Below are positions 24,901-51,508 of a stretch of DNA of 64,000 nt, one piece after another. Below the pieces are notes generated by a model, which was not told the origin of the DNA, searched no databases, and saw nothing but the letters and a program-made list of their open reading frames with translations. The stretch covers positions 1 to 64,000 of the forward strand of contig KZ538208.1 in NCBI GenBank assembly GCA_000934665.2, read 5' to 3'. Within the stretch, counting starts at the first letter, position 1. Each line of letters begins with the position of its first letter. The stretch is from Catajapyx aquilonaris (Eukaryota). The translations under genes and the position numbers were made by a program.

Positions 24901-27900
24901 GTTCAAAATATTGCGGTTGTCAAAGTTCGTGTTAATTAGCTGCAATGTCGTAACCTTGAAAAGTTGTAGGGTGTTAAAAATTTAGTGAAGTTAACTGAAA
25001 GTACAAAACTGTGATTGGCAGCTGTAATTATATTGTCAGCCAATTTGCATACCGTGCATATAACACCCGATCTAATATGCAAGAGCCAGCATTTTTTTTT
25101 GTCCCACGTAACCTCACCAAACACGGGTGTCGCCATTAGTCTATTGATAACAATCTGTATTCACTACCCCATGTTCAATAGACAGAAAAAAACCGGGGAG
25201 CACAAACTAACAATGCATATATTTCATTGATTAAACACCGAAGTGGATGACATAATGCAATCCTGATTGAGCCAGATTACCCGAGAAAGTGCATTCAAAA
25301 TGAACATCCCTCTCTCACTCTCCATGTGGAAAAACCTCGTCAAAATTGAGCTTATTATTTCTTGGCCACTACACTCGCTATAATTTTGTCCAACAATAAA
25401 ACTTCACAAGTGTACTGATCATTATGGAAAATCACAAGTGTCATTGAGCTATAATTGGAACTTTTTGTCTGGTTATTTTGGTCGTATGTTACTGGAATTG
25501 GGTTCAAAAATACTGGAAATTCTCGTAAAAACGGAAGCATATCGCAATATCCTTTCTCAAAAACAAAAAAAACTCTCGAAAAATCCTTCCGTAACATACG
25601 TGGGCCACAATGTCGAAAGATCTTGGCACCCTCCAGGCCTTTGGCACAGTTACCTCAAAAGTGCGTCACACCACAAAATTTTCTGCGGACTTCTTATGAC
25701 CGCAACTATAATCTGGCAACTCACCAATGATAAGTGTGAGCATGTCCGCCACGGCCAGGTTGAATAGGTAGTAATTAGTAGCCGTCTGCATATACTGGTT
25801 CTTGGCTATAACCAGACAGGTGCTCCCGTTGCCAAACACTCCCGTTATGAAAATCAGGACATACACGACCGTCATAGGTATTAAGGAGTTGAACGGAAGA
25901 TGTTTAGGTCCAAGGTACGCTTCCAGGTACGCCTCCAGGTTGCCACTGGAGTTAACCTGGTCCTGGTCCTCAAACCACTCGGTCCTCTCCGTACCGTTCA
26001 TTCCGAACAACATTGCACTCATCACCTACACTCGCACACACGGTACATTCCGCTCTCTCTGAGCGCCGCGACACGACTGACTCAGCCCCGCTTTAGCTAG
26101 TCGCAACCACACAAAACGCGCGCACCACCACCTGACCATAACCGGAATCTCAACCTCGTGGACCGCTATTGTCATCCATGTTTGGACCTATCGCTTGTCA
26201 GACCATGACGGCCAGAACCGCGATAGAAACTGATATCTTCCGAGCTTTTTCCGCTATAGAACGACATATTGACAAAGCCAACCGTCGCGTCGTAGGGCCT
26301 CACATAAATTCGCCATTTTAGCTTGATATCGCCTATAAAATATTTGGTCAAGTTCCTTTAAGGTAGTATCCTTATTAAGCCCAATTAACTGATGAGGGCG
26401 TGGGAATATGCGGCCACCAAGTCGGGTGATATATCCTAGTTGAACTTGAAGGCTTCGTTATAATGACAAAGGCGGCGTTTATCATGGGGGGCCGCTGTAT
26501 AATAAAGCAAGGAACTGTCAAGACCTCCATCGGGACGCTAAAGTCGCCGGCACGTAATGGACAACATTGTTATGAGACGGAATGATCCGAGAAGCTGTGT
26601 GTTGAATAACCATGAGGGGGGTTTTTGAGACAGGTCAAACCCCAAGGACGCGATGGGTAGCAATCAACAAAGGAAAATAATGTCATTAAATTTTGTAATG
26701 TTTGACCCCCTACGTATAATGCGGATGTTTGAAAACACCGCCAACTTGAGATTGCAGGGAAAAACCTTGATTTGTAAATTAGAATGTACAGGGTGTTCAC
26801 CCCAGAGCATGTGCTTGAATATTCCTTATGTCTGACCGGACAAAAACTTTTCATATTAGCATCTTTGTTCTACATGATTGCAAGACAAGTTCATGGACAA
26901 ATTGTCCGGCCATTGACCATAAAAGGATACGAAACAGATGTTGCCCTTCACTATCATGGCGTCCTTAACAAACAAAACATGCCCATTTCCCTGAAGTGTA
27001 TAAGTCGATTGTAATTTTTTTTTCTTCAAAAAATATTTGTTCGTTGAGTAATAAGCAACATTTGGCAACTTTAACCCTCAGGATGAATTCGCTAGTCTAA
27101 ACCGGTGCACGAAACGCCTGCTTCAAACCACCTATCACGTATCGAGTAATTACTACATTTTCATCAAAATTTCTGCCCCCTTCTTGTTACGAGCCTAGGC
27201 ATTGTTATAATACGGTCACGCAGGTGGTATGCTCGTTGGCATGTCACGAAGAGGAGAGAAAACTGAGCAAATGAACCGGATTTTTTGGGAGGAGGAGCGC
27301 TGCCCATTATCCCGTTACTCTCCCAATACTAATGAGATGCTCGGTGCTAAAATTTTCGCGAACCCGTGCTAGTTACAGTAATATGAAATTTCAAACTGCA
27401 TATAACACCTACTGGCAAAATTAGCCTGGTGTAAAATGAAATATGGTCGAAAACAAACTAATGGCAGTGGGGTAAAGTTTTATTGATATTCCGGTGTTAT
27501 TACCCAGAGGACAGGGATTGTTTTCAGTAGTTTCCCAGTGCAAATAGAGTCAAAAGCTTCTGCGGTTCTGCAGTCCTAATCTGCCTACGGGAGTGTTTAC
27601 CCAGAACACAGTAGCAGGTAACTTGGTTTGTTATTTTGGTTTGGCAGTGCGAATGGAGGTGAAGGTTGCGGCGGTGAATAGCAAAACTTTGTTAAGGGAT
27701 TATCTGCAACAATAATCCGCATTGATGTGCTCGTGAATGTCAATTTACGACAAAATTGGTGCGGGCTTAAGGAATATGGGATTAATAAAAAATGCCTTAA
27801 TACTGCTATAATCGGGTTATTCTACGGTCTGGTGGAGAAGAGTGTGCTGTTAAAACCATATTTTATGAAGATGGTGAAATCTATTAAATCATGATTAATC

Positions 27901-30900
27901 GGCAATAGCACAGATTATTTGTTAAAAACGTCATACTTTTTCGAGCCAACTTAACTATTTCGAGAGCAGTAGCCTTGATCTACGTCGTATTAATTGCGAA
28001 GGCCAGTGGCTGACACTTTTAACAAATTACAAAGCAGGTGTACACGTCACACCCAAAAACCACAATTAGACACAAAAAACAGGGCAAACGACCCAGAATT
28101 CCCAAAGGATTTCACACCCGGGCTATTTCTCCTCCCCAAATTCCCAAGTCCTTTAACCGGTTACAAATAGCAACAGCCAGTAGCAAAACAACCTATAAAA
28201 ACAGTTAAAAATTGATAGTCCTAGGTCGTGAGCAGTTTTCTTAAAGAGGAACTATCAGTACATATTTTTTTGGGTACACTTCAGGAACTCGAGCCAGGAG
28301 GTTTGGATCACCTTCTTTTGTCTGACACAGGTGAAAATATTTTTGGTACACAGATTTCTGAGGCTCTCTAGACCGTGGTTGGCACGAGGTCCAAAAAGAC
28401 GCTTGAAAGTTATCAACAGATTGCAGTCATTCTTGTTGTCGCACTTAAGGTCACTGATGTTGTCACTGTGAAATCAAGCAACGAATAAGAGAAAACTAAA
28501 ATAGGTCACATTCTGTACTATATGTCTCGCGAAGTCTGCAAAAAAAAAAGTACGAGAGGGAAATGAGTGCAAAAAAATGCGCGGCATACTTTGGTCTCAA
28601 AACCAGGCGCTAATAAATTCCAATCTGCATCCCGCTAAAATTCAGCGGGTTGTAAATTTACGCCATGTTCATCCCAATAAATGGCTGCCATCACATCAGA
28701 CCTTCACTCACATTTTTAATACTTTAGGACCCATCCCTATCTCCAGCTTTTATGCATAACGCAACTGTTTGCATAAATTCGCGTTGGTCTGAACCAAAAC
28801 AGTTTCTTATAACTGACAAATTTCAACTCACAACATGCGATAAGAAATTGGCGGTCCTGGGAAAGATATTCTGCTAATTAGGTTAGGTTAGGATAGGTTA
28901 GGTTAGGTTAGTTTAGGTTAGGATAGGTGAGGATAGGTAAGGTTAGGTAAGGCAAGGCTAGGATTATTGTTAGGTTAGGTTAGATTAGGTTAGAGAGTAG
29001 TTAGTACAGGAATCTGTAACAAGAAACACTATTTTGCTAGTTGTTTTCTAGAGAATTCTCTGCGACTACGTAGGATAGCTTGGAGAAGGATTGATAGTAT
29101 CCGGTCGTGTTCCACTTGTCGGATTTACATTGCGGAAAAGGGACATGTCTTTGGGAGCGAGCGCCCTTGGATTTTATTGAGACCAACCGCCCAGCAACCC
29201 CCTCTAAGAAGATGCACTTCCTTGGCCATGGCCGACTTGACTTTTTTAAAACCATTTAATCTAGCCTGAGTGTACGAGGCTCTAGGCCATTTCCAGCGGA
29301 ATTTGTCTCTGAGAACCCAGCAGATCCTTATACTCCCAAGAAAATGAAGCCATACGCTCACTGCTCTCTTGAGATGCTGAAAATACATATATACATCACA
29401 TCTTTTAAAAAATAAGGAATGCCTTATTATATACCCTAAAAAATTTAACAATTACCAGTCACCTGTAATCAGTCTGCATATATCTTCCATGATTAATTGC
29501 TCGGTCCAGAGGAAAGGTACCTCCCACATATCAATTACATGGAAGCGAAACCTGAAGCCCTAATTACCAGCCACATGCACGATAAACTTGCGCCCATTGC
29601 CCATGGTCTGCATCATTACCAATAATCAAGCTTGATCCAGACTCTCTCATGATAAAGGGCTATTTACGTCTTACTAAAACCTGACTTCCCATTCCATATT
29701 TTCACTGATTCATTCACGTGTCTTCAGACCATGAATGGACCAAATCGGGCCAAATCGATGTCTCCAAGAAATTGATTGCATTATCGGAAATCGAAGAATT
29801 TTTTCTTAGAAGCAGTGACGTCAAGGTGTTTTTTTTCTTCAACAAGGATGAGTGTTATTGTGGCCTTCTCGACATGGAGTTGGGGTAATTTGTCTTGGCC
29901 CGGGTTTGTTCTTGGTGAATTATTGCAGCGGGTTTTAAATCCTTCTCAGGTGGGTGGAAAATCGTGGGCGTGGAAATCCGGCGGGACAGGACATGAAGCA
30001 CGGATAGATATTTTATTATAGTTTCAACCAATATAGTACTAGAATATTCCAGGTCAATTATAGGGATTTTTAAATGCGCTATGTTGCAGGTCGGATAAAT
30101 CGGATTATGAACTCTTTGTGAAGAATTCGAGATGCATGGATAGGTTTTTCGCATGGAAACGTAATGCTCTAAAAATGCGACAAATGCAGGGGGATTTGGT
30201 TCTAATAAGTGCAATGCGGTGGTACGGTACAGAGGAATTTTGGACTGCCAAGTATGACGCAAATTGGGTGAGTCATTTTCAATTCTCACGAGCGTTTTCC
30301 TCGCTCAATTCAGTTTGAATCGTATAGGGAAGTAGAGTAGGTTTCCAACTTTTACGGAAAGTTCCGGATGGAAGCGTCGTTTATCGGCGAGATTTCCGCC
30401 TGAATTGTGGACCAAAATGGAAGTGGTCATCATACTCTCTCAGAGTCAGATTGTAGCAAAAGTGTACTCAAAAATCTGGGTTTGATGCAGTGAGAGAGTC
30501 ACAAATGACGTGGAAATGCTTTCCATTTATCGCCTTTTGCCATCATTGATTTATGGTGTCAGTAAACTTTCTCTGTTCAAGTAAGTAATGCAAAATATCT
30601 CCAATACGATCTTCCACCGAAACAATACTTTGACTGATTACCTGTCAACGTTATTGGAAGTGCATAAAGAGATTGTAACTTAAGTGAAATGATGAAATCA
30701 GTCCATTATCCTCGTAATAGGAGCACAAGTATTTAGTCAGTACAGTTATTTTTACAAATATTTAATATTAAAATCCTTCGTTGTATGAGCGACCCGCCTG
30801 CGCAACGGGGAAAGACAGCGCCTCTGGTGGATGGGAGAAGGAACTAGTTAATAAATAAATAAATAATTGTACGATATTAGGTACACTGTTTAAAAATTAA

Positions 30901-33900
30901 AATCAACAGGCTTTAATCACTCTCAAAGGCTGGGGGATTATTACCGTATGAAGTTGTTGATCTCGCTATATTTTATTTGCATACAATCCCTTTGTTAATG
31001 CAACAATGCTTCTCATCCTGATGGGGGGAAAAAAGGAGGCCTCGGGTTATTTCGAAGACGCTTTTTTGAAGCGAGCCAATGAAGTGAAGCTTGGTCGTAG
31101 AAATTCTACTGGCAAGCATTCATCCAAAACTTACCTTTCCGTGCGCATTACGGGCTAAATGGATCAGCTCATTTGATGCACGGCGGGTTCAACGTAGTGT
31201 GTGAGAGAGAAAAAAAAACCCTTCTTTTATCATTTACTTCAAAAAAAGGAGTTCCGTCACTCAAACGATATTTTTAGAGCTTTTCTCTCTATGAAAAGCA
31301 TCATGCCACTGGTGAAAATCTTCCAATTATAAGCCCCTATAGAATTTTGGAATAATTGCAATGACGTGTTTTGGAAAATTAGAGGCAGAAAACTGTTATT
31401 TTTTAAATCTTGAAAAGACAGAATATTAAAGGAATGTTTACTAAGATGGAATAGATATTAGGTGTAACCATAATTTATTTATGAGTAACCTGCAAGTAAT
31501 TATTCTGTCTGGAACACAGTCGCAAATTACTCCACTTGCGAATATTAACCGTGGAGTTAATTACCAAATGGAATGCTTCTGGTCGGTATTGCTAATGAAG
31601 GACGTGATTAGACGACGACGCATTAATTTCTCTGCTTATGAACAGTACGTCACGATCATATATATTTTTTTCCTTCGAAAATGATGCAAGCTAAGGCTTT
31701 TCACCTTAAGAGTTTAAAAACCCCCCCTAAATTGCATGCGGTACCACTTAATTATTCTGCTTTGGTCTTGTTAATTGGCCGCGAGACTTGCCAGGTCTTG
31801 TCAACCGAGCTAAAATTGTGCGCGTGGAATTTTAAGCCGGTCGTTTCAAAACGAGGCCAATAATGCGTTCAATTGATTACACAGCATTTAATATTTAATT
31901 GCCTGAATAAACCAATGAAATAAATTATATTATAAACTTAAATAAATAACGAAATAATGTATCATTATGAAACCATTACATTAAATGCCACATTATGAAA
32001 TCAATAAATAAGGAAACAAAACAACACATATAAATTGCGTCATGAATGAATTAGTGGTCGTTAAATGATCATTAAGAGATGACACATAATCTGACGTGTA
32101 ATGGGTAAATGGACATGTACATGTTTTTGATATTAATTATGAAGAGCTTGATATAGGCTGGCATGGAAATATTTTTAGCGACCATATAACCTTTAGGTGG
32201 TGGTCGGATTTACCATCCAAAAAAAGACACTTGAATCCTTCCCACGCTAGTCACTATTCATGAATGGGTGGGCGGATCGATATGGTTAAAGCGACGATGT
32301 GGGCGAAAAACACCACTGCAGTTTTCGACTCCGCATTAATAACGTCAGCCTTGGGCCATCAAACAGAAAATAATATGTATATGCATAATGTGCAAAACAC
32401 ACATGCATTGAATGAAACGCATTGTGTGTGAAATATGCGCAAGGTGCACCACAATAGAGCAGGTGCCGAGATTCAAATAACATATTGTAAAACGAGATAC
32501 AGTGACAAAGCGCCCACTAAATATTGGTGCGGTTTGGATTTCAAAGCCAATTGTGTATTACAATAATTGTGGGTTTGAACTTTCACGTATGTAGGCAGTT
32601 TCAAAAAAAATGTAGGCATTGCCATGTGACGCCATAGCAAATTATAAAAAGAAGTGATTGTATTTTGATTAGATTTCACTTTTCAAATATCACATCACAT
32701 GCGTCATGTACCTTTCAATTAAATAATTATTACAGCCTGCTCCACACAATACGTTGAATGCGCATTTTTTTGAAGCAAGCCTTAATTAGTCTTTAATGTT
32801 GAACGCATTACAGTCTGCATCAGACTATAATAGAGAATATTTTAATCATGCGGTTTGCATTAACAGGCTAGCTGGATATTAAAAATGTCTGAATTATTTA
32901 CCATATGCCGCAAAATACTCGTACTACACATAACGTGGAAGAAATAATTTTTTTTATTTAAAACGTCCTTATTTTCTGAGCAATCATGAAAATATTGGAG
33001 TATTATCTGAATTTTAATTTTTGGAAACCTGTCAGAAGATTGGATTCAGCCATATTTTTTTGACCTTGTCTATTTCTGCTTGGATCTGACCTATTTCTTC
33101 AGCTTCTAAGGAATATCCCCCGTGTAAATACAACTGTACGATCGTGTTGGGATTTCCTTCCCTTCCTGTCGATTGGACCTTGCAGCCAGAGCACACCGAG
33201 ACCCAAAGTTTGTTGAGAGAAACACCCTGCTCTGATGCACCACTTGCATTGATCCTGACCATCTGAGGCGCCACAGCCGTTCTGCCCGGAAAACTCCAGC
33301 AACATTTTCGACTTTTCCCCCCTTAATTCCTCTAATTCTGCCATCAGAAAAAAAAGAAATCCTACAACTACGTGTCAGATAAGGTCACGAAGAGTGCCCG
33401 TTACGCCATTTGCACTTACTTCGATTTTTTTCCTTCATCCATTTATCTTCTGCCCAAATTGTGGTGCCCTTTTCCGGCTCAAGATGTTAGATAAATGACG
33501 AATTGTGGACTCAAGTCATCAATTTGAACTAGAAGCAACAATCACAACTTAGGGTCTCTTCAAACATTTTGCTGGGGTAAACAATTATCGATGCTTGAAC
33601 TGCTGTAGACTTCAGAAATTAACCATCCTGTATTTTTCCAGTGATAATACACTAATTATTATTATTAAAATAAAATTTATGTGAATATTCAAAATAGGCA
33701 TTTTATGCTACCAAGTACATGCTTTTTCCATTTAAATTGTTAAATTACTAAGCGATGTTGATTCATAGGGTGTAAATAAATAGGGCAACCTTTGGTCTTC
33801 CATTTTGCCTGACCCTTTTTTTGTTGTAGTGCCTGCGGGGGTGGATGCTCCATGGGGGTGTAACTCATTCGGGTTAAGCGGCTTTTTATGTCCATCGCAT

Positions 33901-36900
33901 CGCTTACAAGTAGTATGGTTGGGATTATATATATAAAAAAATCACTTCACGAATGGATGCCGTATGATGGATGGTCCGGACATGTAGGTTTGAAAGCTCG
34001 TGCTGGGTTGTTGCAACTTGAGATTTTTAAACCGTTTTTTTAAAGCAAAAGAGTGAGCGTTTGCACTGTATTACATCATGGGTAATTATCCATTATTATA
34101 ACGGGATGAAGCACATGAACCCCGCCCTTCAATCAGGGAATTGGCTAGGTCCACTGGTGATTTTTTTTGGCGCCCTTGACATTCAAGTTCTCTTTAAAAT
34201 AAATCTAATGGGTGTTCCGAATCCCTTAATCGGATTGGCGTGCACGTTTTTGAAGCATTTCATAAAACCGTTCATGAAACGTTGGCTAACTGCTGCGAAT
34301 TGCCGCCACCCTTTCAATGCCTCTTAATCTAATCCCAGCTTTGTCGCATCCCATTGCAGAGGTTGGTGGGTGACAAAAGTTGTTTGTGAATAATTTGTTT
34401 ATGATTATGACTTGCTTTTTTCAGCAGGTACTAAAATATTGATCGTTTAATCCTCATCGACATAATCACATAATGTAGTGACATATAGTACAGTATTACG
34501 TGTCCATCGATTCTCAGCATGGAATAGATCCTAATCGTTCAAATATCTTCATATTTGGGAGAGCATCAGTAAATTTCTGTCGAAATGGTAGCTTCTAATT
34601 ATATTGTTGAGATAATGCGGAATTCGATATACTGTAGAAATAACTCATGCAATATTTTGAGTTTTCTCCTCTACGACGCAGCTCCCCACCATGTAACAGC
34701 AACTCAAATTCACACAAATATTTTTCATGATGAAAAATATTTGTGTGAATTTGAGTTGCTTTTACATTACAATTTTTAAACTTTTACAAATTATGGAAAA
34801 TTAGCAATTTTCCACAAATAGCTACACACAATAGCTAATTGTTATACATGCAAAACCATACACTAAATTACGAAACATGTTGAACATAATAGGATAGTAA
34901 TAGAATCACGCTTTTCAGCGCTAATTAAGATAAATAAACTAAATTGGTATAGCAAACATGCCAATATGTAATGAACGAAATCACTGCGAGCCACTGGACA
35001 CTAGCTGCAACAATTAAATTGTTATTTCCATTGATTGACATTCGCTGAAAATATCACCACCCTAGACAGCAGGCCAATGACATAACCCGCACCAATTTTC
35101 TTATTTCTTCAACTCGAGCAGCTGTCTACCCTTAGTAACAAGCTTAACTCCAAACGACATCTAGTTAAGCCCTTTTTGCGCCGGATCAAAGTGAAGGCAG
35201 CCCTTCTGGGGGTATACATCCCCGCCTTCCATAATTGTACATTCGGCAACTTATTGAGGTCGACCACCAGCTGATACCATCGTCCACCAATTTGGAGGAT
35301 CAATTAAGTATGCCTTCAGTTGGGTGCAGGGTTGAATGGCCTGAACCTTTACTAGGATTAAGGCCTGATCACCTGTCGCCTTGCAAATCTAGGGAAGTGC
35401 TTGGTTTGCTGGGGGGTTGAAAACAGATGGCGAAATTCGCAGGGATGGAAGGTCTCATTTTGGGTGCGACTCTGGACTCCAGGGTTTGTCGGAGACTGAT
35501 TGCGGACGCGATTACAAATGACGACTTTGGGACCACCCTAGAGGATGCCAGGTTCTTTGGCCTCCCAGAGTGTGGGATGGGAAATAATCATGGATGGGGT
35601 GGAAGGAATGGGCTTAATTTCGTCCCTTTGTGATTCGAATTTCAAGCAGAAGAGATGAGAGCCCCCCCCTCCAATGCTTATTAGTCGGTTGATTCAAAGG
35701 TTAAGGCCGATTGACTGCAGTTGGCTTTTTGGCCTTCCTGGTGCAGCGGGGGACACTCTCCGTCGCGCTTTGTAATTGGGCGATTGGATCAGAGAAAGTG
35801 CAGATTGCAGGATTTCGTCCAGATGAAAGAGTCAGTTGGAACGAAATTGATCACTAAATATTTGAAGGCAGTACATTTAAAATGTTAATCGATTGTATTT
35901 GATTTTCTTCTAAATTTTATTATGCCACCATCATTTAAAAATTACAGCTTAAGAACAAAATATCACTATTACCACGAAAATATGATTGTTTTGCAGTTTG
36001 CCATTGTCTTGCATTTCATACTGCAAGGTACATTAAACTAAATTATTACGACAATACTATAGTGTATGGTACTGTGCGGGACGTCTGTTCATAAATATCT
36101 GCAATTCCCCCTGTAAAGCCATTACAGTCACAATAAAACAAGGTTCACAGGCAACCATTATGCCGTAGTAATATCGACATGTAATCGTATTTCAGGCCCT
36201 TTGGACATTCACAAACAAGTTTCAAATTTTGTTCTATTACACTGCCAGAATATATCCTGCTTTTTTCTATACAACAAGCCCGAATTAGTGACATGACAAT
36301 GTTCGTAAAAAGTTACTCCATTCAAACTTCCCTTTAATTCAATGTATTATTGAAAGTGACGTGCAAAAGTGGTTGCCGCAAGAAACGTCGCATGTCATGG
36401 GTGTAACCATGAACTGCTTTGGTCAAACATGAAGGTCAAGCTTCTACACTGCATACGATAATGGGAAACGAGGAAGAAGGTGCTGGTTTTTTGGGTGTAG
36501 GTGGAGCTGTTCTATATATGGCCTGGCAACAAAACACGTAAAGAGCACGCTGACATATACGGAAAACCTTATTCGATGGCCTCCTTATGAATAATAGACT
36601 AGGTAAATTGCTTTGCGCACGTCTTGTCTTCATGTACTGTAATTTCCTCTGGTTTCTATTTTCGGGAGCTCTCACTGACGTACACGTTATGGTGTGACAT
36701 ACATGTGCATCATGCAATCCACATGTAGTCCGAATCCCCATGTTACATTCAAAGGTCAATTTACTATATAGGACTGCACATATTAATGGTGGATCTTTCG
36801 TTAACAATAACAAGACGTTAAGGCAATTTATCTACTGTAAATCGGTGGATGTTTACCAGAGGGGGTTTTTCCTGCCCAAATCGATACCGCGCTGTCGACA

Positions 36901-39900
36901 CTGTCACTCTTATCAATATCTAGTGACATTGACAAATAGCCGTCTTTCACGGGCATTGGTGACATTCTTCCTTCACCTTCACTTGTGCCATGTTCGTCCA
37001 ATATTCAGCGATCACAAAAAATGTTGATAATGTCAGAGTATATGGGAAGAATTAACCAACAATCCATATAAGTCATTACCTCCTTGGCCTACTCTAAAGA
37101 CGTCGCCTAAAATTTGACTCGAATAAGGCGTGGCTTCCTCCATGGCTCTGAAACATAATCGCCGTCGCAATCCACTGGAAGTCTCACATTAGGCAAATGA
37201 GCAAACTAAAGGAGCCCACCCATTCACGCCTGGGGAGACTCAAGAAAAAAAAATTGGAATGAGAGCAGAGTCCCTCATAATGAATTTAGGCGGCCCTCCT
37301 AGCTGTGTACTCAGGGCTTTCTGAGACACTAACGCGGGCCACGAATTAGCCAAATGCGATTGTCCCGTCGCTTCCTGTGGTTTATTCACCTGACTAGAAT
37401 AATTCACTAGGACCACCATCTAAATCCAGGTCGCACTTGTGTACTGAAGACAAGTGGCTACTTTTTATCCTTAAAATGTCTCATCTGATCCTTAAGGCAT
37501 TACTTGGATTATTGCATAGGACTTAGTGTTCTGCCAAAATTTATTGGCGATATACCCAGGTCGAATCTAAAGGGTCGTGCTATCCCATGCAGGCACGATT
37601 ATCCTTCTGTCGCGTGACTCTAGTATAGTCCCTATAGTTGGCTTCTCGTGTGTCCCATCCAAGACTTATTCATTGTGTCCCGAAAGGACGGTTCGTTAAG
37701 CGGAGATTATGAATTGCGGCTCTGTCTCTAGGCTCTAGGGCCAGCTCTTCGGGTAATTAAAGGCATCATGAATAGGAATTTTAATAGGCGGGAGGGGATA
37801 TTACTGGATTTAAAAGTGGTGCTAATTTGAATATGAATACAATGCAACATGATTAGCAAAGTGGCCTTGACCTACAGGAGTTACAGTGGTCTGGAGTAAT
37901 TTTAAAATACTGGAGCACTTATGACAACGTAAGTAAGGTTTACGTCCACATATTAAACGTACTTCCCATCAGCTGATGCGGCACAGAATTAATTGTTTTT
38001 GACGGGAATCCGATTAATTCCTGGCCAAACTTGCAAATCTCTGCATAATAAACACGGGAGCGCCAAAGTGATAACACAAGCGATGACTCCATAAAAAAGT
38101 TCGGTGTAAATCAGTATTTACAAATCTGATTATGTAGACATCGGCATGCAAATTGCCCATTACTGACACGCTCAGTGAATAAACACGGCTCAATTCACCA
38201 AAAAGCAACAATGCTCTGCCATTGAAGACACCCTTTGATAGGAACAGGACAACCTCAACTTAATCACAGTAAAACCTGGAAGCAGCCGCTCTTCCCATAA
38301 AAGGAAGCAATTTCAACTTCATTAATGTTCCATCATTACCCTCTAGTTCTATAGGGTAATGCTTCTAAGCATAAACTCGTCTAAGCATGAAATGACCGAT
38401 TCATATATGGTCTCACACAATTCCTATAATACGTATGCAACCCAGTCGTACAGCTGAAGGTGGCGGGATGCATTCAGATGAAGCTCTTTTTTGGTGTGAG
38501 AATGGACCACGTAGTTATCCCGAATGGAAAAGAGGGCTTTCCTGAATGGAAATGGTTGGCGCCTGAAGTTCCAACGAAACTCGCTCGATGGCGGAGGTGC
38601 AGCTGAAAAGGGTTGGCGAAAATGGACGGTTTTTCAGACTGTCTATTAAGGCTGTCCGTAAACCTACGTCCGGTCCTATGGAGATATATAGACCTGTTTT
38701 TTTCACGCAAAACTACAAAATTTATGGATACCCTGTATGGAGATTAATTTTTGCGAAAGTCGCAAAAAAGAGAAGCAATTTGGGCAAGAATTACAGCATC
38801 ATTAAGGCAAAAAAAGGAGAGTAAATACCGCGTAAATCTTGAATGTCATGAATACATCAACAGTGAAATATGTCAAGAGGCGCCCATCTTCCTGGAAATG
38901 TACTGGAGAATTTTCCAGGGGGGATGTTTCCCAATCAGGAGAAGAAGGCGTTGGAATTGGCCACAAGGGGATTGCTTGGGTTTGGGATGGGAGACGCGAA
39001 ACTTCAAAGAGTGGCAGAAGATAATGGCCAGAATAGACGGAGAGGAAAAGGTTTTTTTTTTATTTTCTGAAGAGGTTTGAACCTGCGGACATATCCTTTT
39101 CGTTGCCCTTTTTTTCCTATCCGCATTGCGACTTTCATTTTTTCTCATCAGAGAGCGTATAGTGGGAGGATTCTACGATCATAGTGAATGAGAAAGTAGA
39201 TCTGGGTTCATTGCAGCCTTGACCTATTGCTGGTCGTTTATGCCTCCGAAAGAGTGTCTAGTGCAGTAAGATTTGTGCCAGGAAACCCTTGAAGACAATA
39301 GTAGGGGACAAAGTTCTAGCTTGCAGGAATAGAGATGTATAGTTCCGGACAGGACTTTTATTGTAATTTATTGTTTAAGTTTTCGTGCTCCTACTGTTAA
39401 GCAGGAAATGGGTTTATCTCAAAGAGTATTCAGTTGGTCCACAAAGGAACAAAAGGTGTCTTCTGTCAGTTTGTTAGAGAATCTAAACCATTTTATGTCC
39501 CGCAAAAATAATCTTAACTTTAAACGATTTTAGACTGTTTCTCATCAGAAAGTCAAATGAGAAAAAAGTATACTCGAATCGCGCTCGTGTTTGAACGTAG
39601 CAATAATTATTTTGTTGACTCTGTATTAACGAAATTAATGTCACGAAATTTTAAAATGGCGGAAAACCGAATATGTACTTGAAGACCATGCACAAAGGCT
39701 TTTCACTTGCAAGATGAAGTTAGGTCAAGGTTGAAGTAACAGAATGTAACATTTGGGGACAGGAACATGGCCAACCATGGCGTCACGGTTGGGATCGGCA
39801 TAATTAGAGCAGCTCTTGGGGGAGCTTAACGTTGTGTAGGCGTCATTTTCACCAAAATAGTGGCATTTTGCTTCTAGGGAGCCCCAACTTTGGAGCTACG

Positions 39901-42900
39901 TGGAAGTCTAAAAGTTTGAGGGAAATGTCATGCACAAAAAGCCATCAAATATTGTCAATATTGCGCTTCACATAATATCAAATGGACTGGATTACTCGCA
40001 AAATTCAATATTGTCTTAACTGCGCATAAAATCTGGCTGACATGTATACAGGTTCGTCTATTTTACATGAGCTGAGAGGGTACGATATACACGGGTCTGA
40101 TTAAAGTTGCATTTAGCGTGGGAATAACACAGCTTTAACCGTCGCGCCCTTTTCAAACTAATCTTCCACAATTCCTGGAGGGTACAAAAAAAACCTCATG
40201 CTACTCCAGGAGCAGTACAGGTCATTATATTCGGAACTGTTAGGCATCCAACGCAGGCTAGGAATTTGGCAAAAAAAGGATTCTTGCACCTCAGCTAAAA
40301 CCATTTGTTAACGTCAACGGACGTACGCTTTAACGATGTACACTATCCTCACTTTGGAGGTGAAAAAGTGAGATTTACAGGGCATTGGCCTACTCTTGGA
40401 AAACAATTTTGTTTTTAATGCAACAATTCAATTCTGTGTCGAAAAACTTTCTGAATGTTTCTGTCATTTAAATGTAGTTTCCAAATTCTGCCAATGTTAT
40501 TCTCTAACAAAATCTTTGCTGAGATAACAGCTGACAGCTGACAGTGAGTGATGTATGACGTATGGTAGTATAACTGTCTATAATATTTCATATTGAGGAG
40601 CACTTTACTGGACACACTTCATCTGGTAGTGCATAATATTTTTGTGCTTTTCATGCCCGAACTTCCTACTTTATTTGAATTGCAAGAGTGGTGTGCTAAA
40701 ACATGTCTGAAATTTTTTTGATGCTCCAGCTGCAGTGGACTCTCAATTTGATATATGCCTCTACCCTAACAGTCCTCGCACGCTCCTCTTTTCTAAGGGC
40801 AAAAAAGGCAGACCTATATCTTACAAGTGGTGGAGTCCTCTCCAATTGAACTGGGGGGGCATGTCTTGGAAATAACATTCCATATCTCGACGTGCAATTA
40901 CCGTATATCACGAGGATATAGACCCCTGTGGATTTTCCACATTTTGGTATAGAGTTCTAGGGAAATTGCTTAGTCTCCAGTTCAGCGAAATGAGTGCGTC
41001 GATTGAGTTCAGAGGGGGATAGTTATCCGGATAAATTTTTTTCCGATTACATGTTAGTGTGCTTGGGGTTTCCTAATAGAAAAAATCAGAAAAGTAGAAA
41101 GTAGAAGAAGAAAAAAAAAGTATTCAACTTTTTGGGTCAGAATTGCTACAACTGTCTTGATCGAAGTTGTAACGGAAATCGAAGGAGACTTGTCTTCTTG
41201 GAAACGAGTTTCTCTCCTGTAAGACTTTTCTCTTGCTCCTGCCAAGCCTGGTGTCAAATAAAAGAAAAGGATGTGTATTTCTGTAAATAACTGGAACATG
41301 GCCCAAGTGTTTCGAAAGGTTCAAAAACACTTGCGGGCTTTACGCGGAAGTTTGCAATCGAACATGCAGGGTCTGCAGCGGAATTACTTTTACAACTTAT
41401 TGGTCCAGTTTGTCACAAGATTTTATCTGATCTGAACTAAACTTCTGCTAAGAAATATTTTATTACAAAAATTCGCAAAATATCACACAGCAGAAGGTAT
41501 GCACTGTGCTCAATCTATAGCTTAAACCTCCAGGCCAAAAATATGCTCAAAGTTTGCCTTAATCTTTTTTCAGTCTATCAAATTGATCACTGATTCAAAG
41601 TGTAAACTTTCCCTCAACGTTGAGGTGTACACGACACACGTTGCCAAACTTTTTTTGTGTAACATCGTGCAGCACAAGTTGTTCTTTGCTAGGCTCAGGA
41701 TCCGGAACAAGCACGCTTCACTGTAATGGTGTCCTTACATAATTTAAGGGCGAAACCCCCGCAAGTTGTAATCTCATCTAGGTAGTGATTCTTGCCAAGA
41801 ACGAAAGTAAAAGGCTGCACTCACCAAACGTTTCACTCATTGGAACGTGATGTGGTCAAGAAACTTTGATCTAGCCACTATTTTAGCCTACCATTCGTAA
41901 TATATTGAGCATTACATACAAATTGAAATGCTGCTGAGGCTCTTCTTCCATAGTTGGTAACCCGCATTTTGTCATCAGCATTGCACGTATTACGTACCCC
42001 AATTAACTCTTGCTTCCATAAAGCGGCGCGGGAAAGTCTGGCTCCCTTAGAAAGTACATATAAGATGCGCTAATTCAAAAGAGGAGGCGCATCCTGGGAC
42101 ATGAGCCAAAATTTCTCTCCACCCACACTTTACAAGGAGAACCCCGCCACCTCGTCTCTAAAAGCTCTTTAAATCTTCAGAATATGAAAGGGATTTTGGG
42201 GCCTGGCCATGTCACTTGGGAAACGAGGATAAGTTGGACCTTCCAAGCACAAAAGGCGCAGTATTATGATAAGTCGGACATATTTTTTTTGAGAGAGAAA
42301 ATGGATCTGTGTAACACTTGTTCTGGTGTAGCAGCTCTGAGGCTTTCAATACCTGTTAGTAGGCCTACTGCAGATTTGATATTTTCTGTCCAAAATGGAA
42401 GGTCAAAAGGCAGCTGTGTGGAATAGTGTCATTGACATCTCACTTCCAGGCGTGGCGTCTGTCCACGGTCGTTCACATGAGCTTAAAATGTCAGGATAAA
42501 ACTCGTTCAACTCTCCAGGAGAAATATTGCTCACTAGAGAAAGCCAATAAACTTGTTTCCCCGACAGTCCTTCCTATACAATACCCCCTTGAAAACTAAC
42601 GTGATTGTTGCCAGATTCTGCCTAATGACGCGGTCGGTATACCTGACACTGCGCAAAATTTGGCGATTTATTATTCCTGGAAATGGGGAATGGTTGGGGT
42701 GCAACGTCAGGCAACTTGATGCCAGATTTTGCGCACAATTCCTACGAGAATGTACCAGGTAATGAATACAAAATGAGCATTTTCGCTTCCCTTTGAGTCC
42801 GGGAAGTCGCAGAAAAATTGAAGCGTCCTGCACAGCAAAGCGCACGCAATTAAGAGTAAACAGTCCAATTCAAGGATTCATGACCTTGCAGTCCTGTAAG

Positions 42901-45647
42901 GCTTGCAATTTCAATAAGGGCGATGGACTCCATCAAAATTCTGCCTGACTATACTGAATGGAGACTATTTTTACATGGCATAAAAAACCCGATCAAAAGT
43001 TGATTGTTTGCATGCTACGCCCACAATGATGACGTCAGTATTATTGCATCATCAGTTGTAAAGGCCATCAACATTATTCCTTCACAGCCCAAGGAACCTT
43101 AACTACATTAGAGGTTAATAAAACTGTTTACGCACCATAATAAAGTTATATGTAACCATAGTGCTGATTTGCATAAACAGCAAACTTTACCTCCTGCTTT
43201 AATCAAAATGTACCACAAACTTCCAAAATTAGCAACCGAGGTAGAAACAGCGGAAGAAATATCGACTAAAATTAAGGCGAATAATGGGGCTAACAATCAT
43301 CCTGATGTTAATCAGCAACTTTAGTTCACCATACCACCTGCAGTGTTTTATGCACCCTCCACCTGCCCTTGACCTACGTAGGAAAAAAAAATACCTCACG
43401 AGAGACCTTCAAATGTGCCAGTCAAACCGTAAACTAATTCTTCACCTGGATGGAGTGATGGACTTAACGTCAGTTTGACAAATCATCGCACTTGGTCTGC
43501 CACGACCGACTAAAATATTGGTGTTATTCAGTCTCTAGAGACTGAAAATGAAGCTCTCTATCTTATCTATGAGCTTCATTTTTTTTGTACAAAAGCCTGA
43601 GGGTAATCTACGCCTGCATAGTTTATAATTAGTTCTCCCTGGTTGTTCGTAAAGATGAAAATTGCGATAAGCTTGATGGCAATTATTGTTAATTGTTGCG
43701 CAAAAGTTAAAGGTAAAAAGTTTATGTACATGAAATTGTACTTCACTTATTTACTTTTTATTAGAGTTATTCACCTTGCAGATATCTTATCCTGAATATC
43801 CAGCAACTTATTCGCCTCGCTTGTTCACAGTGAAAAAAGCCTCGCAGGGGTAATATAAGTTCTCTTCAAACCTACCCTCTTTTTTTTTTGCGAAACCCCG
43901 AGGAAAGCTCGTTATTGTGCTCAGCTCAAGTGTAGTATGATCACAACAACCTCAATTTTTTGGCTGGTGAGATGGGAAGGCCATAGTAAAGCAGCTTTAC
44001 TTCCAGAATTCGCTGAATCTGGGCCAAATGAACTTCTAAAACCTTGTTGGGACTGCCCACACAAAAAAAGTGGCCAAAAATGTGAGCCAATTAAGACCTA
44101 GTTGGACCTGAAATGGTTCGTGGTGTAGTCCCCAATGGGGTTTTTACCGCACTGCTGAAATCGAAATCATGTTTCTGCTTAATTACTGTGTGGTCAGAAG
44201 TGTCAAAAATGTGGATTAAAAGTTTCTACCCTCAAACCGCCTATAGAACAGAGTTCTCTATTGTAACTAGGCATATTGCGCTAATTCAGTGTGGTGTTCT
44301 TGTAAAAAAAAGGTCACTTTCAATTTGCTAATTTTTGCCTCAAAAAGTGTTGGAGAGCTCGTTAGATGAATTCCCACGTGAGTAATGTAAGCTCCAGGAG
44401 CCTGATGAAAATTATAAGACCAACCGCCGTTTCTCCATAGCACTGCATACTTATTAGAGGACGCGTCAATATCCTGGGGGTCCCAAGTTGCTAATTTCAA
44501 TGCCCCGTTTCCGCCAAAATCCGATTGCAAAAGTTTTTGTCAGCACAACCAACTTATCTACCGCTGGAGGATATACCGGATTTCGCTTTTAATGGGACTG
44601 TTAAAACTAGCAACTATATTTTTTTTCTTCTAAATATTTTTATTACATTCCAATTGTTGTCAAACAGCTAAATAATTTTACAACCGTCTTTAAAGCAGCG
44701 GTCTGTGTGAATACCCATTTGCATCACACTGGTTTTATCGCTAATATTTCGCGCAAAGTCGTAAAATGTGGGCTTGCATTATCTGAAAGCGTGGATTTTC
44801 ACAGCATTATATATATTTTTTACGAGTGACCATGAAAAATGAGGGTTGACACTAATGCGGTTGTTTACCACGATCGAGAAAATCCATGATTTGCAATGGA
44901 ATTACCAGGCAATGTTGACATTACAAGAGAGGAGTCTAATTAGAGGGGGTATGTCTCTAATTACTGCAGTGTCAGCCCATTCGATTGGAAGAAACGTGTT
45001 CGGGGTGTTGGATTTTTTTTTCTTCTCTCTGGCTATTCATTCGGAATGACATGCCGAAAAGGAATCGATATCTGGAGAGAATCCACACGATCTCTCTCAA
45101 TGTCGCCGAAAAAAAAAAGAATCAGGAAATGCAATTTGCCTATTCATTCATAGGTGATAAGCACTGTACTCGCACAATAATGAACGTGTAGACGAAATTT
45201 TCAGACACATTTTATTGTGGGGGGGCTTTCCCAGCACAAATTTTCTGCGCATAATAAGGTCACGTTATTGCATGCGACATGATTAAATCAGGACCGATGA
45301 AACGTCAACAAGCGCCACGCAAACCAATGTCGAAATCTAAGTAAGACCAAGTAGTACCATGCAAACTTACCAAAGATGAGCGTGAGCATGTCTGCGATGG
45401 CCAGATTGAATAGATAAAAATTGGTGCAGGTCCTCATGTAGTGAGCCTTTGCGATCACAATACACGTGCTGATGTTTCCGATCATACCGCTGATGAAGAT
45501 GATCAGATACACCACGGTTATTGGTATTAAGCTGGATAATGGTAGGTGTTTGGGTCCCAGATAGAACTGGATGTATGCCTCCATGTCCAGGGCCGAGTTG
45601 GTGGTGGGGATGGCCTGCCCCATACTACTGGTTGGTTCTAGCTCCAT
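392..45647 (-). CDS. Neuropeptide GPCR, PRXamide/neuromedin-U receptor family (CAPA/pyrokinin receptor-like), multi-exon. Exon 1A 45647-45371 OR exon 1B 26022-25725, then 12597-12332, 5581-5299, 2208-2074, 1540-1272 (or read on to stop at 1236), 970-392
   Basis: Class A motifs appear in order across phase-compatible GT-AG exons: LGPKHLP/GN (TM1), TNxYLFNLAxAD (TM2), [11 protein letters not shown] (ECL1), ERYIAICHP (TM3), SAWCA (ECL2), FFVVP (TM5), [13 protein letters not shown] (TM6), NSTINPILY (TM7). Junction phases 1,0,1,1,0 all keep the frame. Predicted about 421-428 aa (short tail) or 602-609 aa (long tail). The CAPA versus pyrokinin subtype is from recalled motifs only. Confidence 0.9.
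1236..1540 (-). CDS. GPCR exon 5 (TM7, helix 8, Cys-rich proximal tail); ends at TAA 1236 or splices from an internal donor after 1272
   Basis: Acceptor [44 protein letters not shown]...CLCCCCCCY; internal phase-0 donor CTG|GTTAGC. Confidence 0.9.
1584..1624. repeat. Short (TTTTACC)n-type tandem repeat
   Basis: TTACCTTTTACCTTTTACCCCTACCTTTACCTTTTACCTTT. Confidence 0.8.
2074..2208 (-). CDS. GPCR exon 4 (TM6, ECL3); not in the ORF track in this frame
   Basis: Acceptor TTCCTTCTCTTACGACAG|TG; manual translation [45 protein letters not shown]; donor G|GTAAGG; 135 nt, phase 1 to phase 1. Confidence 0.93.
2849..2988 (+). mobile_element. Non-autonomous Helitron-like element, copy 1
   Basis: A|TCTGTAATATTAAAATC...GGAACTAG|T (5' TC, 3' CTAG, A/T target, no TSD); both ends recur near 30.8 kb. 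Confidence 0.6.
5299..5581 (-). CDS. GPCR exon 3 (ECL2, TM5, ICL3)
   Basis: Acceptor [34 protein letters not shown]...[17 protein letters not shown]...SRRAVIRML; donor G|GTAAGT. Confidence 0.93.
6897..7056. mobile_element. Small MITE-like element (160 bp), TA-flanked, in a GPCR intron
   Basis: AAAGAACGATCTGACGTCACA (6911-6931) and its exact reverse complement TGTGACGTCAGATCGTTCTTT (7022-7042); imperfect symmetry extends to TA|CAGT...ATTG|TA. Confidence 0.7.
12332..12597 (-). CDS. GPCR exon 2 (end of TM2, ECL1, TM3, TM4)
   Basis: Acceptor TTTTTCTATTCTTGACAG|CT (G+CT=Ala with either exon 1); [22 protein letters not shown]...[11 protein letters not shown]...IPWGAYMK; donor AAG|GTACGT. Confidence 0.93.
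25725..26022 (-). CDS. GPCR alternative first coding exon 1B (N-terminus, TM1, ICL1, most of TM2)
   Basis: [11 protein letters not shown]...[64 protein letters not shown]; 298 nt ending G|GTGAGT (phase 1); in-frame TAG two codons before the ATG. Confidence 0.9.
26050..26100 (-). promoter_or_regulatory. Candidate core promoter (Initiator) for exon 1B
   Basis: TCAGTC (arthropod Inr consensus TCAKTY) at 26080-26075, about 56 nt upstream of the ATG in a GC-rich patch; no polypyrimidine tract before the exon. Confidence 0.4.
28878..28993 (+). repeat. Interstitial degenerate (TTAGG)n telomere-type repeat
   Basis: About 20 pentamer units of TTAGG with ATAGG/TGAGG/TAAGG variants. Confidence 0.9.
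30759..30847 (+). mobile_element. Helitron-like element, copy 2 (internally deleted)
   Basis: Shares TAATATTAAAATCyTTCGTTGTATG and CGCCTGCGCAA...AGACAGCGCCTCTGGTGGATGG...GAACTAGT with 2849-2988. Confidence 0.55.
45371..45647 (-). CDS. GPCR alternative first coding exon 1A (N-terminus, TM1, ICL1, most of TM2)
   Basis: AAG-ATG-G start; MELEPTSS...[64 protein letters not shown]; 277 nt ending G|GTAAGT (phase 1). An acceptor-like TTTTCCATTTAG near 45730 suggests a further upstream non-coding exon. Confidence 0.88.
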
Positions 45648-48600
45648 CTTCAGTCCCCGGGCGGCCCTGGGGGCCTCCAGGCCTCCGGACACATCCTGCC
45701 CGGGGCCAGTCCAAGGCCCGACTTATTTCCTAAATGGAAAACCGAGACCCCGCAGAACCGGGGCCTGCGCTGTGTTACCTTAACCGAGGGACCAAGGGCA
45801 CGCGCCCCACGCTGCTGATGCTCTATGGACGTAAAAACCCCCATTCAGGACAGGACTGCGCTATTCATAGAGTTCCATCGAATCTATGCCACATTCTGAC
45901 AGTGATGGAGGAAAACACAGAAACCACTTCATGGGTGAATATTCAGCATAGTGCGGTCCGGATTGGGAGAAAATGTGACTGTGGGTGACGTATAGGGACC
46001 GTCCATTCTGTGTTCGCTGAATCCGAATCCGAAAACCATTTGTCGCTATCTTTTGTGGTTGAGTCCCTGATACCTGTCCACAGACGGACAGACGAGCCGT
46101 GAGGCCTAAAACTTATTTTGATGAGAAAAAGTCTAAAAGTATCTGTCGGACCATACAGCTTACGTCAGTAACTGTTTTTGCAAATCTGTGGCGTATCTAC
46201 ACAAAAAAGATGGTTACTTTCAGGGTTTTTCATCAACTCCCGGGTAGCTCTCGGAGAATTCCTAATGAGAGGACAGACACTTTTTGTGAATATTCAGCAG
46301 GCGTATATTTTTTTTTTCCTGTGGTATTGTCAAAGTTTTGGCGGGCGGCAGCACCGAACTAGGGGCGAAACTTTTTTTTTTTTTGCGTGTAATTAGTATC
46401 AAAGAAGCTGGGTTTGACGTAAGCAGTTGCGTTCTTTGTGTATTACATTAATCACGGATGACAGACTTTTTATCAAGGTGCAGCTATTCACGTGTCGTTA
46501 CTCCGGGCTGCATTATTCAAAAAAAACGGATTAATTACGCCGACAACAATGAATAAAGTGTAGGGCTCACAAGTATTATTGCGAAAGAAATTTTTCTACC
46601 CAGAGTTTTCTGAAGGCGAAAAAAAACTGTTATGTAACCACTAACTCAATATTTACAGATTTGAACGTGCGCTGAATTAATACGAAAAATATCAATCCTA
46701 TCCAAAATCCAGTGGCGCACAGATTCGGTTCCATTTTTCATATACTGTCCATATTACGTAAGAACTATATAAAAAACCTAGTTTGAAAGCAAATTCGGCA
46801 AAATGGCTGCCCCTTTTTGTATATCCCTGATCGCTCTTTTCACCTGATATAAACAATGTGCGTAAATAGCGAGAGGCATAGAGCCGCTTTTGTTGCTCTA
46901 CTTTGCTGCCGATCATATCCGCATCGACCAAATATCGATTACTGAGATAATCGTGTGTTTGAAAATAAACAGAAACTATCGATTCATCAGCCTGAATTCG
47001 CCAAAATTCAAAATCGCTGAGATTGCGATCATTGTTGGAGCACCACATACGTCATAAAGTGTGGCCTGCATATCTCTTGCCTCATTCACCCCATGAGAAT
47101 TTATTCTAGGTCTGAACTAGCCTTCAGTACGACGTGCTTCAGATCTCAATAGCATTTTGTTTGGCACAAAGCCAAAATCAGATTTGCAATTATTTTTTTT
47201 TCATTCAACCTCCCAAAACACATGTCGTCAAGTCTTATCTTTGTCGCAAAAAGTATCTGAGCAGACCCCATAATGTGCAATTTGCAATCTGCCCTCATTC
47301 CCTTTTGCGAATCTCATTCCGTATAATCGCGAGCTAGGTCAACTAGAAAACCCCTTGGAATCCGAGCTTAACCCGAATTCAATCCGATTGAAGCCGTCAT
47401 CCTAAAAATTAGTCTGACTTTTTTTTTTTTCTTCTGATGAATGAGCCTTCCCCCAGTGGTATTGATTCCAATTTTTTTTTGGAGATGCCTTGTGACGATC
47501 CCCCGAAAAAACGGTTCCATTTTTTATGCAGTCAGATAGGCGCCATCTTAGTGGTCCATCCGGATTAGGACCGGATAATTGTGTACGTGCCTCGAAATTT
47601 TATTGTTAGGACCTGGTGTTCCATATGACCCTGTACAATGTCTTAAATGTCAAGGGCGCTTAATGGTAGTAAAACATAGTATCAGGATGCGAATCTTATG
47701 CACGCTACCCAAAGGATCGATTGTTAGGAAACTTTTTTTGTACTGCTCATTCTTGCTAAAACTATATGTTCGTTGTTTTTTTGGAGCGAAAGAGGAACGT
47801 CCCCGTGGGGACAGAGTTCATTTCCGGCGCGTTAGTCCCTGGCAAATGAGGAGTGGTTGCGATGTGTATGAAGGGTAATGTCATGCGCTCAGGACGACTT
47901 CCGGAGCCTGGCCTTTATAGAGCTCCCCTGGATTGTGCCAACTACAATCGTAATGAAGCCTCGGGTGTCAGTCAACTTTGTTACGCCAAGTTAATGAAAG
48001 GAGAAGGCGTCAAGTGGGAGTCATAAAAACAAAGGGCGTTCCATTTACATTGCAAGGTACTATTGCAACAACAACAACAGCAGCAAATAAAAGCAAAAAC
48101 CATTATAACATGTGATGTTATGAAGATTTTCCACAGCAAACAAGTGCGATGGAAACATTTTTCTACGTACAATACTGGCCAGCAAAACATGCCTTTTTAT
48201 GGCACATATGCTGTTTATCTCTGCGGCCGTTGTGCTATAATCAGAACGTTACCCTCTTCCCATTACGCGGTACCGCTGTTGCTAGGAAACAAAGCCAATA
48301 CCAAGAGAGTCTAAGATAATGGGTATTAAACTGGTTACAAAACAGCCTATTTGGACCCCACAGTGCGTCCCAAGGGTGGGTTGCTCTTCCCCTTGACCTT
48401 CTGCAGAGGCCTGCTGATTATCGCCTACTCACTGTATCATAATACAGAGTGTGGTGTCGGTGTCCTTAAAACGTGTTCTCTGACCTCGACATTCAAACTC
48501 CCAATTCTCTGATGCAATCCCCATAATGTGTGCAAATCATAATATTTTATACAAATTAACAGACAAAAATTAACTCAGGACAGTGTAGCATATCTACACG

Positions 48601-51493: not shown

Positions 51494-51508
51494 NNNNNNN
51501 NNNNNNNN
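51494..51508. other. Assembly gap (15 N) after a poly-C run
   Basis: Literal Ns in the sequence. Confidence 0.99.

Follow-up and report, generated by a model that had tools for sequence, protein, structure and literature searches.

Paralogous, probably alternative first exons in a putative neuromedin-U/pyrokinin/CAPA-type receptor gene of Catajapyx aquilonaris

Background

In the clustered protocadherin and UGT1A genes, a tandem series of paralogous first exons precedes one constant set of exons; every first exon brings its own start codon and donor and is joined to that set individually. A locus of comparable layout is described here from a 64,000-nt stretch of the Catajapyx aquilonaris genome (GenBank assembly GCA_000934665.2, contig KZ538208.1, positions 1 to 64,000; hereafter the window), where two paralogous first coding exons, 1A and 1B, stand upstream of a single set of exons for the rest of a seven-transmembrane (7TM) neuropeptide receptor. 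An initial annotation of the window had proposed that one locus yields two receptors through a variable N-terminal module and a constant body, and that proposal is followed up below.

Alternative exons have been reported in several class-A receptor genes. The ecdysis-triggering hormone receptors ETHR-A and ETHR-B arise from a mutually exclusive pair, exons 4A and 4B, which cover transmembrane helices (TM) 4-7 (PMC5572281; PMC3510462); the initial annotation had noted duplicated, mutually exclusive exons in these receptors, and a legend in PMC5572281 bears this out. The pyrokinin receptor variants PK-R1a/b and PK-R3a/b of Halyomorpha halys differ at the C-terminal intracellular end (PMC7274154), and alternative promoters of the mu-opioid receptor gene OPRM1 (exon 11 versus exon 1) alter the N-terminal part of the product (PMC8159799). 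On the ligand side, springtails possess a single capa/pk gene, from which two splice forms arise (Derst et al. 2016, PMC4770511; PMC9853942).

Organization of the Receptor Locus

The receptor gene lies on the minus strand, as do all features of it listed here, and runs from about 45.7 kb down to 0.4 kb of the window. At its 5′ end are two intact paralogous exons, each with its own ATG and phase-1 GT donor, whose coordinates and features agree with the initial annotation. The coding part of exon 1A (45647-45371) comprises the ATG, an N-terminal tail, TM1, a 'KAHYMRTCT'-type first intracellular loop (ICL1) and the inner two thirds of TM2; the exon is followed by an intron of ~19.3 kb (45370-26023) with a (TTAGG)n array inside. 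That of exon 1B (26022-25725) comprises the ATG, an N-terminal tail with two N-X-S/T sequons, TM1, an ICL1 of the 'KNQYMQTAT' type and inner TM2. Both are free of stops, with translations of 92 amino acids (aa) plus one base for 1A and 99 aa plus one base for 1B. An ungapped count gave 52 identities over 76 positions, the same figures as first reported, and BLASTP aligned the two without gaps at 52/75 (E 3e-40). The exons end on TLIF (1A) and TLII (1B), followed by the phase-1 donors G/GTAAGT and G/GTGAGT, respectively (the slash marks the exon boundary), and the final G is completed by the CT of exon 2 to the same Ala codon in either case.

The first constant exon, exon 2 (12597-12332), is preceded by a pyrimidine-rich acceptor (...ttcttgacag) and encodes outer TM2, TM3 with ERY, and TM4. 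Exon 3 (5581-5299) carries the second extracellular loop (ECL2), TM5 and ICL3, exon 4 (2208-2074) TM6 and ECL3, and exon 5 (1540-1281) TM7 with NPILY, helix 8 and a Cys-rich stretch; its acceptor is at 1540 and its 3′ end is provisional. An open frame at 991-395, with a provisional acceptor, holds the last coding exon and encodes a C-terminal tail with conserved SLPDS..LCC and SKSEGD. Canonical splice sites are present at every fixed boundary, that is, through the exon 5 acceptor. As the exon 1 boundary falls inside TM2, the constant part extends from the outer third of TM2 through TM7 and the C-terminus.

Class-A receptors are marked by GN in TM1, LAxxD in TM2, E/DRY in TM3 and NPxxY in TM7, and the corresponding motifs here are GN and NLA(I/V)AD in both first exons, ERY in exon 2 and NPILY in exon 5. 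The Pfam family 7tm_1 (PF00001) matched exons 1A (E 3e-06) and 1B (E 3e-07), both over profile positions 1-35, as well as exon 2 (E 2.5e-20, positions 31-126) and exon 3 (E 8e-09, positions 132-205). The best named matches bear the automatic names 'pyrokinin-1 receptor-like', 'neuropeptides capa receptor-like' and 'neuromedin-U receptor 2-like', the nearest named relatives are springtail receptors, and the solved structures nearest to the orthologue from the springtail Folsomia candida are human NMUR2 (E 7e-54) and NMUR1 (E 1e-53). In trees of both exon 1 and the body, the gene clusters with receptors of chelicerates, myriapods and Artemia and is separate from insect PK1-R and, in the exon-1 tree only, also from a single beetle CAPA-R. 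Judged by these closest relatives, it appears to be a class-A neuropeptide receptor of the neuromedin-U/pyrokinin/CAPA (PRXamide) group.

Only one receptor body was found in the window. With seven full-length relatives as queries, tblastn gave, in the matches listed for four of them, two for exon 1 and one for each later exon. A profile hidden Markov model (HMM) built from 41 exon-1 sequences, run over six-frame pieces of the window, gave two matches (E 4e-41 and 2e-39; next best 0.62), and one built from 14 receptor bodies gave four (E <= 3.5e-17; next best 1.1). There is no N between 12.6 and 45.6 kb, and a Pfam scan of the 102 open reading frames (ORFs) of at least 85 aa in the two long introns yielded no match. 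A third exon-1 copy or a decayed second body was considered and rejected, as no other profile match in the window was better than E 0.6. The window thus holds two tandem paralogous first exons upstream of one constant set in 64 kb. The claim of one TM3-TM7 set, with none between 1A and 1B, stands on both kinds of search, although the constant module, first described as TM3-TM7, must be widened to take in the outer third of TM2.

The favoured explanation, which we hold to be probable, is a single gene with two paralogous alternative 5′ coding exons, one shared body and two 7TM receptors as products. Each first exon would supply the start codon, the extracellular tail, TM1, ICL1 and the inner two thirds of TM2, and either would be joined through a like phase-1 donor to exon 2, so that the two receptors would be common from outer TM2 to the C-terminus. 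Transcripts begun at 1A would skip 1B, and 1B would be transcribed from its own promoter within the 1A intron. In the Orchesella lineage, a later gene duplication would have been followed by the keeping of one first-exon type per copy.

Conservation and Age of the First Exons

Both exon types recur in other species. In F. candida, a cluster at 90% identity contained the RefSeq isoforms X1/X2 (XP_035705428/29) and X3 (XP_035705430), which are identical from 'AMPMELG' on and differ in the first exon alone; that exon is 1A-like in X3 and 1B-like in X1/X2, with the junctions LIF/A and LII/A. Further 1A-type exons include that of Orchesella cincta ODN01361.1 (P0077), annotated as a 152-aa stand-alone 'Neuromedin-U receptor 2', and those of seven unnamed Logan/JGI ORFs in which the donor is read through as 'GK' or 'GE'. 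Two of 19 metagenome loci have a 1A-type exon with G/GTAAG kept (L001, which is the contig of JGI ORF P0078, and L002), six have springtail 1B-like exons and eleven belong to other receptor types. The read-through residues of the seven ORFs, together with GGTAAG in L001 and L002, indicate that the donor is conserved. In none of the 19 loci did the two exon types occur together, nor did either of them occur alongside a body exon; in L001, 6.3 kb upstream and 7.5 kb downstream of the 1A-type exon contained neither a second exon type nor a body exon. Next to the springtail-like 1B-type exon of another metagenome contig (L006:2632-2961) stands GGCAAGT, where the donor at the conserved phase-1 site would be GC instead of GT.

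On this comparison, the alternative-first-exon design appears to be conserved, and it accounts for two annotation errors: the stand-alone O. cincta model just mentioned, and F. candida OXA58647.1 (P0037), which begins at exon 2 and is also without part of TM6-7. Knowledge of the design is therefore of use in annotation, both for the 1A-type orphan model and for the first exon absent from P0037.

In a maximum-likelihood (ML) tree of exon 1 (40 sequences and 69 columns, one short row having been left out), all ten 1A-type rows fall in one clade, with support of 100/98; the tree gave no resolution of this clade's place among other arthropod receptors. Between 1A and 1B, the proportion of synonymous differences (pS) is 0.75, which is saturated, and the nonsynonymous distance (dN) is 0.25, with codon position 2 identical at 65/76 codons and position 3 at 31/76. 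The 1A orthologues have a dN of 0.13-0.19 with saturated pS; for the window 1A against those of L001 and L002, pS is 0.76-0.86 and dN about 0.19, and L001 and L002 compared with each other have a dN/dS of 0.07. Saturated synonymous sites combined with low dN indicate that both exons are old and under purifying selection, and 1A and 1B look to be products of an old duplication, long kept as coding sequence.

It is conceivable that exon 1A is, in this genome, an unused relic, intact by chance or recently silenced, with the 1B isoform alone being made. Its end branch is the longest of the 1A clade (0.45, versus 0 for 1B), and its N-terminal tail, read by eye, is without an N-X-S/T sequon, a feature that at least five of the nine other 1A-type exons possess. 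Against such decay, the ORF, the ATG and the GTAAGT donor of 1A are all intact, its changes at columns otherwise invariant in the 1A clade are conservative (L>I, S>C, Y>F), and its dN to orthologues is held to 0.19 over saturated synonymous sites. Moreover, all four positions diagnostic of the 1A type in loop 1 (see below) are in the 1A-type state, with S replaced by C at the fourth. We regard the relic explanation as quite improbable.

Splicing and Promoter Choice

Splicing of exon 1B was seen in run X5 (32 M letters; kind of run not given), in which a 439-nt contig lies on 25725-25990 and continues into 30 letters that match only 12568-12597 of the window. As this contig continues from 25725 into 12597, it displays the exact 1B/exon-2 junction that the initial annotation had put forward for checking. 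A query of sequencing runs with 45371-45760 listed no RNA run, and among the X5 contigs over 25700-45699 none lay on 1A; neither outcome has a bearing on expression. The joining of 1A to exon 2 was seen only in annotated models, namely F. candida X3 and O. dallaii P0098.

The sequences upstream of the two exons differ in character. A TAG stands two codons upstream of the 1B ATG, and none of the 22 AGs within 300 nt upstream of this ATG reaches a pyrimidine fraction of 0.7 (maximum 0.61), in keeping with an earlier claim of an in-frame stop and no pyrimidine tract. The same fraction, a crude acceptor measure, is 0.67-0.83 at the four real acceptors of the receptor gene. Upstream of the 1A ATG, three of 19 AGs are acceptor-like, with fractions of 0.72-0.83 at distances of 82-248 nt. 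An mRNA containing both 1A and 1B was also considered and rejected, since joining 1A to the AG immediately ahead of the 1B ATG leads, on a reading by eye, to a frameshift into a stop.

Because no acceptor-like site precedes 1B, transcripts started at 1A would be expected to skip it, and 1B would depend on a separate promoter within the 1A intron; the first exon is thus probably chosen by two promoters. The motif TCAGTC at 26080-26075, 53 nt upstream of the 1B ATG, matches the arthropod initiator consensus and gives a weak hint of a start site there, being a single short match that is possible by chance. Ahead of 1A, a short upstream ORF read by eye (45694-45650; ATG, 13 codons and TGA) ends 2 nt before the 1A ATG. 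It probably lies in the 5′ leader of 1A transcripts, and these 14 codons could damp translation of the 1A isoform.

Alternatively, a single promoter common to both isoforms, or a 5′ non-coding exon, might lie upstream of 1A, with the same two isoforms then produced through mutually exclusive splicing. The three acceptor-like AGs before 1A would allow it to be an internal exon, and the related ETH receptor gene does use mutually exclusive internal exons (PMC5572281). The AGs before 1B, however, all fall below the range of the real acceptors, and the TAG near its ATG stands in the way of an internal position. In addition, when 5 kb around each exon was searched by blastn against the metagenome loci, and 1A against 1B, similarity was confined to the coding parts, with no conserved intron sequence around either exon. 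The two exons do not have the form of an internal pair of the ETHR type, as both carry a start codon and 1B is without an acceptor-like site. Shared-promoter splicing is therefore considered rather unlikely, and two first exons under separate promoters remain the preferred explanation.

Orchesella and the Two-Gene State

While the F. candida isoforms share one body, Orchesella dallaii has the two exon types in two genes. The product P0098 (CAL8081340; 874 aa), which was found in the cluster of the O. cincta 1A fragment, has a 1A-type exon joined as TLIF/AMPMELF to its own body, and P0003 (CAL8081332; 852 aa), encoded on the same 6.2-Mb contig, has a 1B-type exon. The two are 48% identical overall and far more alike in the transmembrane core. 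A tree of 18 receptor bodies has the O. dallaii pair as sisters (97/94), with Folsomia next (99/97) and the window receptor just outside (82/79, weak). Approximately unbiased (AU) tests rejected a grouping of window, Folsomia and O. dallaii 1A-gene bodies without the 1B-gene body (p-AU 5e-6), and did not reject monophyly of all four bodies (p 0.31).

The exon-1 split thus appears to predate by far that of the Orchesella bodies. This suggests that one body with two first exons was ancestral, and that Orchesella would later have duplicated the gene, with one exon type remaining in each copy. The initial proposal of a variable N-terminal module and a constant body from one locus is in the main supported by the 1B junction, the F. 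candida isoforms and the 1A clade, but the arrangement is not universal, given the two genes of O. dallaii.

Within the 1A-1B intron, the arthropod telomere motif TTAGG is repeated ~23 times in an interstitial array at 28878-28993 (116 bp, 78% matches), and the array explains a bin with a word depth of about 10,000 and a break of short-read contigs at this place. Contigs of runs X1, X2 and X4 match 25700-28901, 29107-33588, 33827-34727 and 34731-45699 without mismatch and break at repeats. Four contig 'joints' in the region were set aside as repeat artefacts, their sides being only 21-22 letters long.

Such a break raises the alternative that C. aquilonaris, like Orchesella, has two separate genes, the body of 1A being absent here through a mis-join or collapse of the assembly. 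The two complete O. dallaii genes, one per exon type, provide a precedent, and the (TTAGG)n array is flanked by the ends, at 28901 and 29009, of Logan contigs from the DNA runs. Yet the 64 kb contain no second body or relic, nor any N in the interval noted above, and the two exons share a strand, with 1A upstream of 1B, the orientation expected of a shared locus. Furthermore, the F. candida models put both exon types on one body, the sister relationship of the O. dallaii bodies makes the two-gene state look derived, and the array is short and degenerate, as is typical of an interstitial repeat. Two genes with a missing body are, in our judgement, highly unlikely.

The evidence for a single gene with two first exons should be set against several points that count the other way. 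Three of these have been met already: the pyrimidine-rich AGs upstream of 1A, by which 1A may be preceded by a non-coding exon; the long end branch and sequon-free tail of 1A; and the break of short-read contigs at the array that separates 1A from 1B. The DNA runs may themselves be the source of the assembly, and the physical link of 1A and 1B then rests on the assembly itself. The 1A isoform in this species draws on comparison with other species, where the models of F. candida X3 and of O. dallaii are products of computational annotation, and both promoters are postulated. As for the ancestral state, the AU groups were chosen after the tree had been seen, and a grouping of Folsomia with the O. 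dallaii 1A-gene body was borderline (p 0.057). Gene conversion between two old Orchesella genes could also mimic a recent duplication, an alternative that would further entail that a body was lost twice independently, in the lineage of the window and in that of Folsomia.

A Signature in Intracellular Loop 1

The ten 1A rows were compared with 20 close non-1A rows, leaving out ten others (six of an insect-type clade, comprising PK1-R, CAPA-R and two unnamed rows; two unnamed rows just outside the main clade; and two unnamed long-branch rows). Four of 77 columns proved diagnostic (N>A, Q>H, Q>R and A>S/C), each in the 1A state in 10/10 rows of the 1A clade and in 0-1 of the 20 other rows; at the fourth, S (9/10) and C (1/10, the window 1A) were counted together. 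The N-terminal tails are otherwise variable.

The positions were located on an AlphaFold2 model of F. candida X3, based on a 24-row alignment. Its mean predicted local distance difference test (pLDDT) score of 60 is low because of a disordered tail, with values of 83-94 over residues 21-130 (TM1 to TM3). In the model, TM1 spans residues 29-59 and TM2 residues 66-94, and the diagnostic residues are 60, 61, 64 and 66, with a pLDDT there of 83-90; the four residues of 1A are therefore predicted to lie in ICL1 and at the start of TM2, in its first turn. TM2 also contains the exon boundary, F84/A85, and alignment to human NMUR2 concurs.

The 'KNQYMQTAT' type of ICL1 in 1B is ancestral. Most likely, the isoforms differ mainly on the cytoplasmic face, that is, in how they couple, are regulated or are trafficked, and perhaps also in the tissues that express them, and not mainly in the choice of ligand. 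One may go further and tentatively propose, as a possibility that we would not call likely, that an old, conserved ICL1 switch affords two signalling channels, differing in G-protein or arrestin coupling or, by way of two promoters, in cell type, from one PRXamide receptor gene of springtail-like hexapods, and that Orchesella made these isoforms into genes. If so, the receptor would parallel the two splice forms of the single capa/pk ligand gene (PMC4770511) and would be a natural case of alternative isoforms divided between duplicate genes.

Neighbouring Genes

Several other coding features occur between the receptor gene and the far end of the window. On the same strand and just upstream of the receptor, two adjacent open frames at 49385-50330 contain EF-hand pairs (PF13499, E 5e-15 and 1.5e-05) and probably represent a calmodulin- or troponin-C-like gene, which would leave ~3.7 kb for the 1A promoter region. 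Two open frames at 52948-54945 (minus strand) match the SIKE family (PF05769, E 5e-32 and 1.5e-12) as exons of one gene, and the sole run of N in the window (15 N at 51494-51508) lies outside the receptor gene, between the EF-hand and SIKE genes. On the plus strand, an unbroken ORF of 644 aa at 55688-57619 weakly matches the ligand-gated ion channel family PF00060 (E 2e-04, under the Pfam cut-off) and may be an intronless ionotropic (IR-type) chemoreceptor. Finally, tandem minus-strand ORFs of 346 and 328 aa, at 58980-60017 and 62233-63216, each match 7tm_7 (E 1e-13), are 44% identical to one another and form a gustatory-receptor-like pair of paralogues.

Comparison with Known Systems

The locus resembles the protocadherin and UGT1A clusters in its plan and departs from them in having two variable exons only, in a variable portion that is cut inside a helix of a 7TM segment, in place of a whole ectodomain or substrate-binding domain, and in promoters that are so far postulated. 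The ETHR gene is alike in that it encodes a related PRXamide-family class-A receptor and employs duplicated exons one at a time, for two receptors per gene. Its exons, however, are internal or 3′, encode TM4-TM7, possess acceptors and are chosen by splicing, whereas those of the window are 5′, bear start codons and encode the N-terminus, TM1, ICL1 and inner TM2, with no acceptor-like site before 1B. The OPRM1 gene differs in that its alternative exons are not paralogues and yield variants without TM1 (6TM), while both isoforms of the window would be full 7TM receptors.

Diversity among pyrokinin, CAPA and ETH receptors has so far been ascribed to whole-gene duplication, C-terminal splice variants and the TM4-7 exon pair of ETHR-A/B. 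Alternative transcripts are known for pyrokinin, CAPA and pheromone biosynthesis-activating neuropeptide (PBAN) receptors of the same superfamily, moth PBAN-R included, and the accessible accounts of them describe no paralogous alternative 5′ exons. In a literature search whose coverage mostly excluded subscription journals, no description was found of such exons in pyrokinin/CAPA-type receptors or in this springtail gene. The initial annotation had likewise known of no 5′ version in receptors of this type; no paper was found to contradict it, but the F. candida RefSeq models already list the isoforms, which are thus recorded in automated models and yet undescribed in the literature found. The part exchanged here is a 5′ module with four fixed ICL1 residues, and it provides a compact hypothesis on how loop 1 might tune coupling in a neuromedin-U-type receptor.

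The F. candida gene, known from automated models with the inconsistent names 'cholecystokinin receptor type A-like' and 'pyrokinin-1 receptor-like', represents the same receptor with the same two first-exon types, the same junction and one identical body. The O. dallaii pair has the same exon types and junction as the window, with each type attached to a full body of its own. Set beside one another, the window and Folsomia, with one body and two first exons, and Orchesella, with two genes, would offer a dated example of the division of isoforms between genes.

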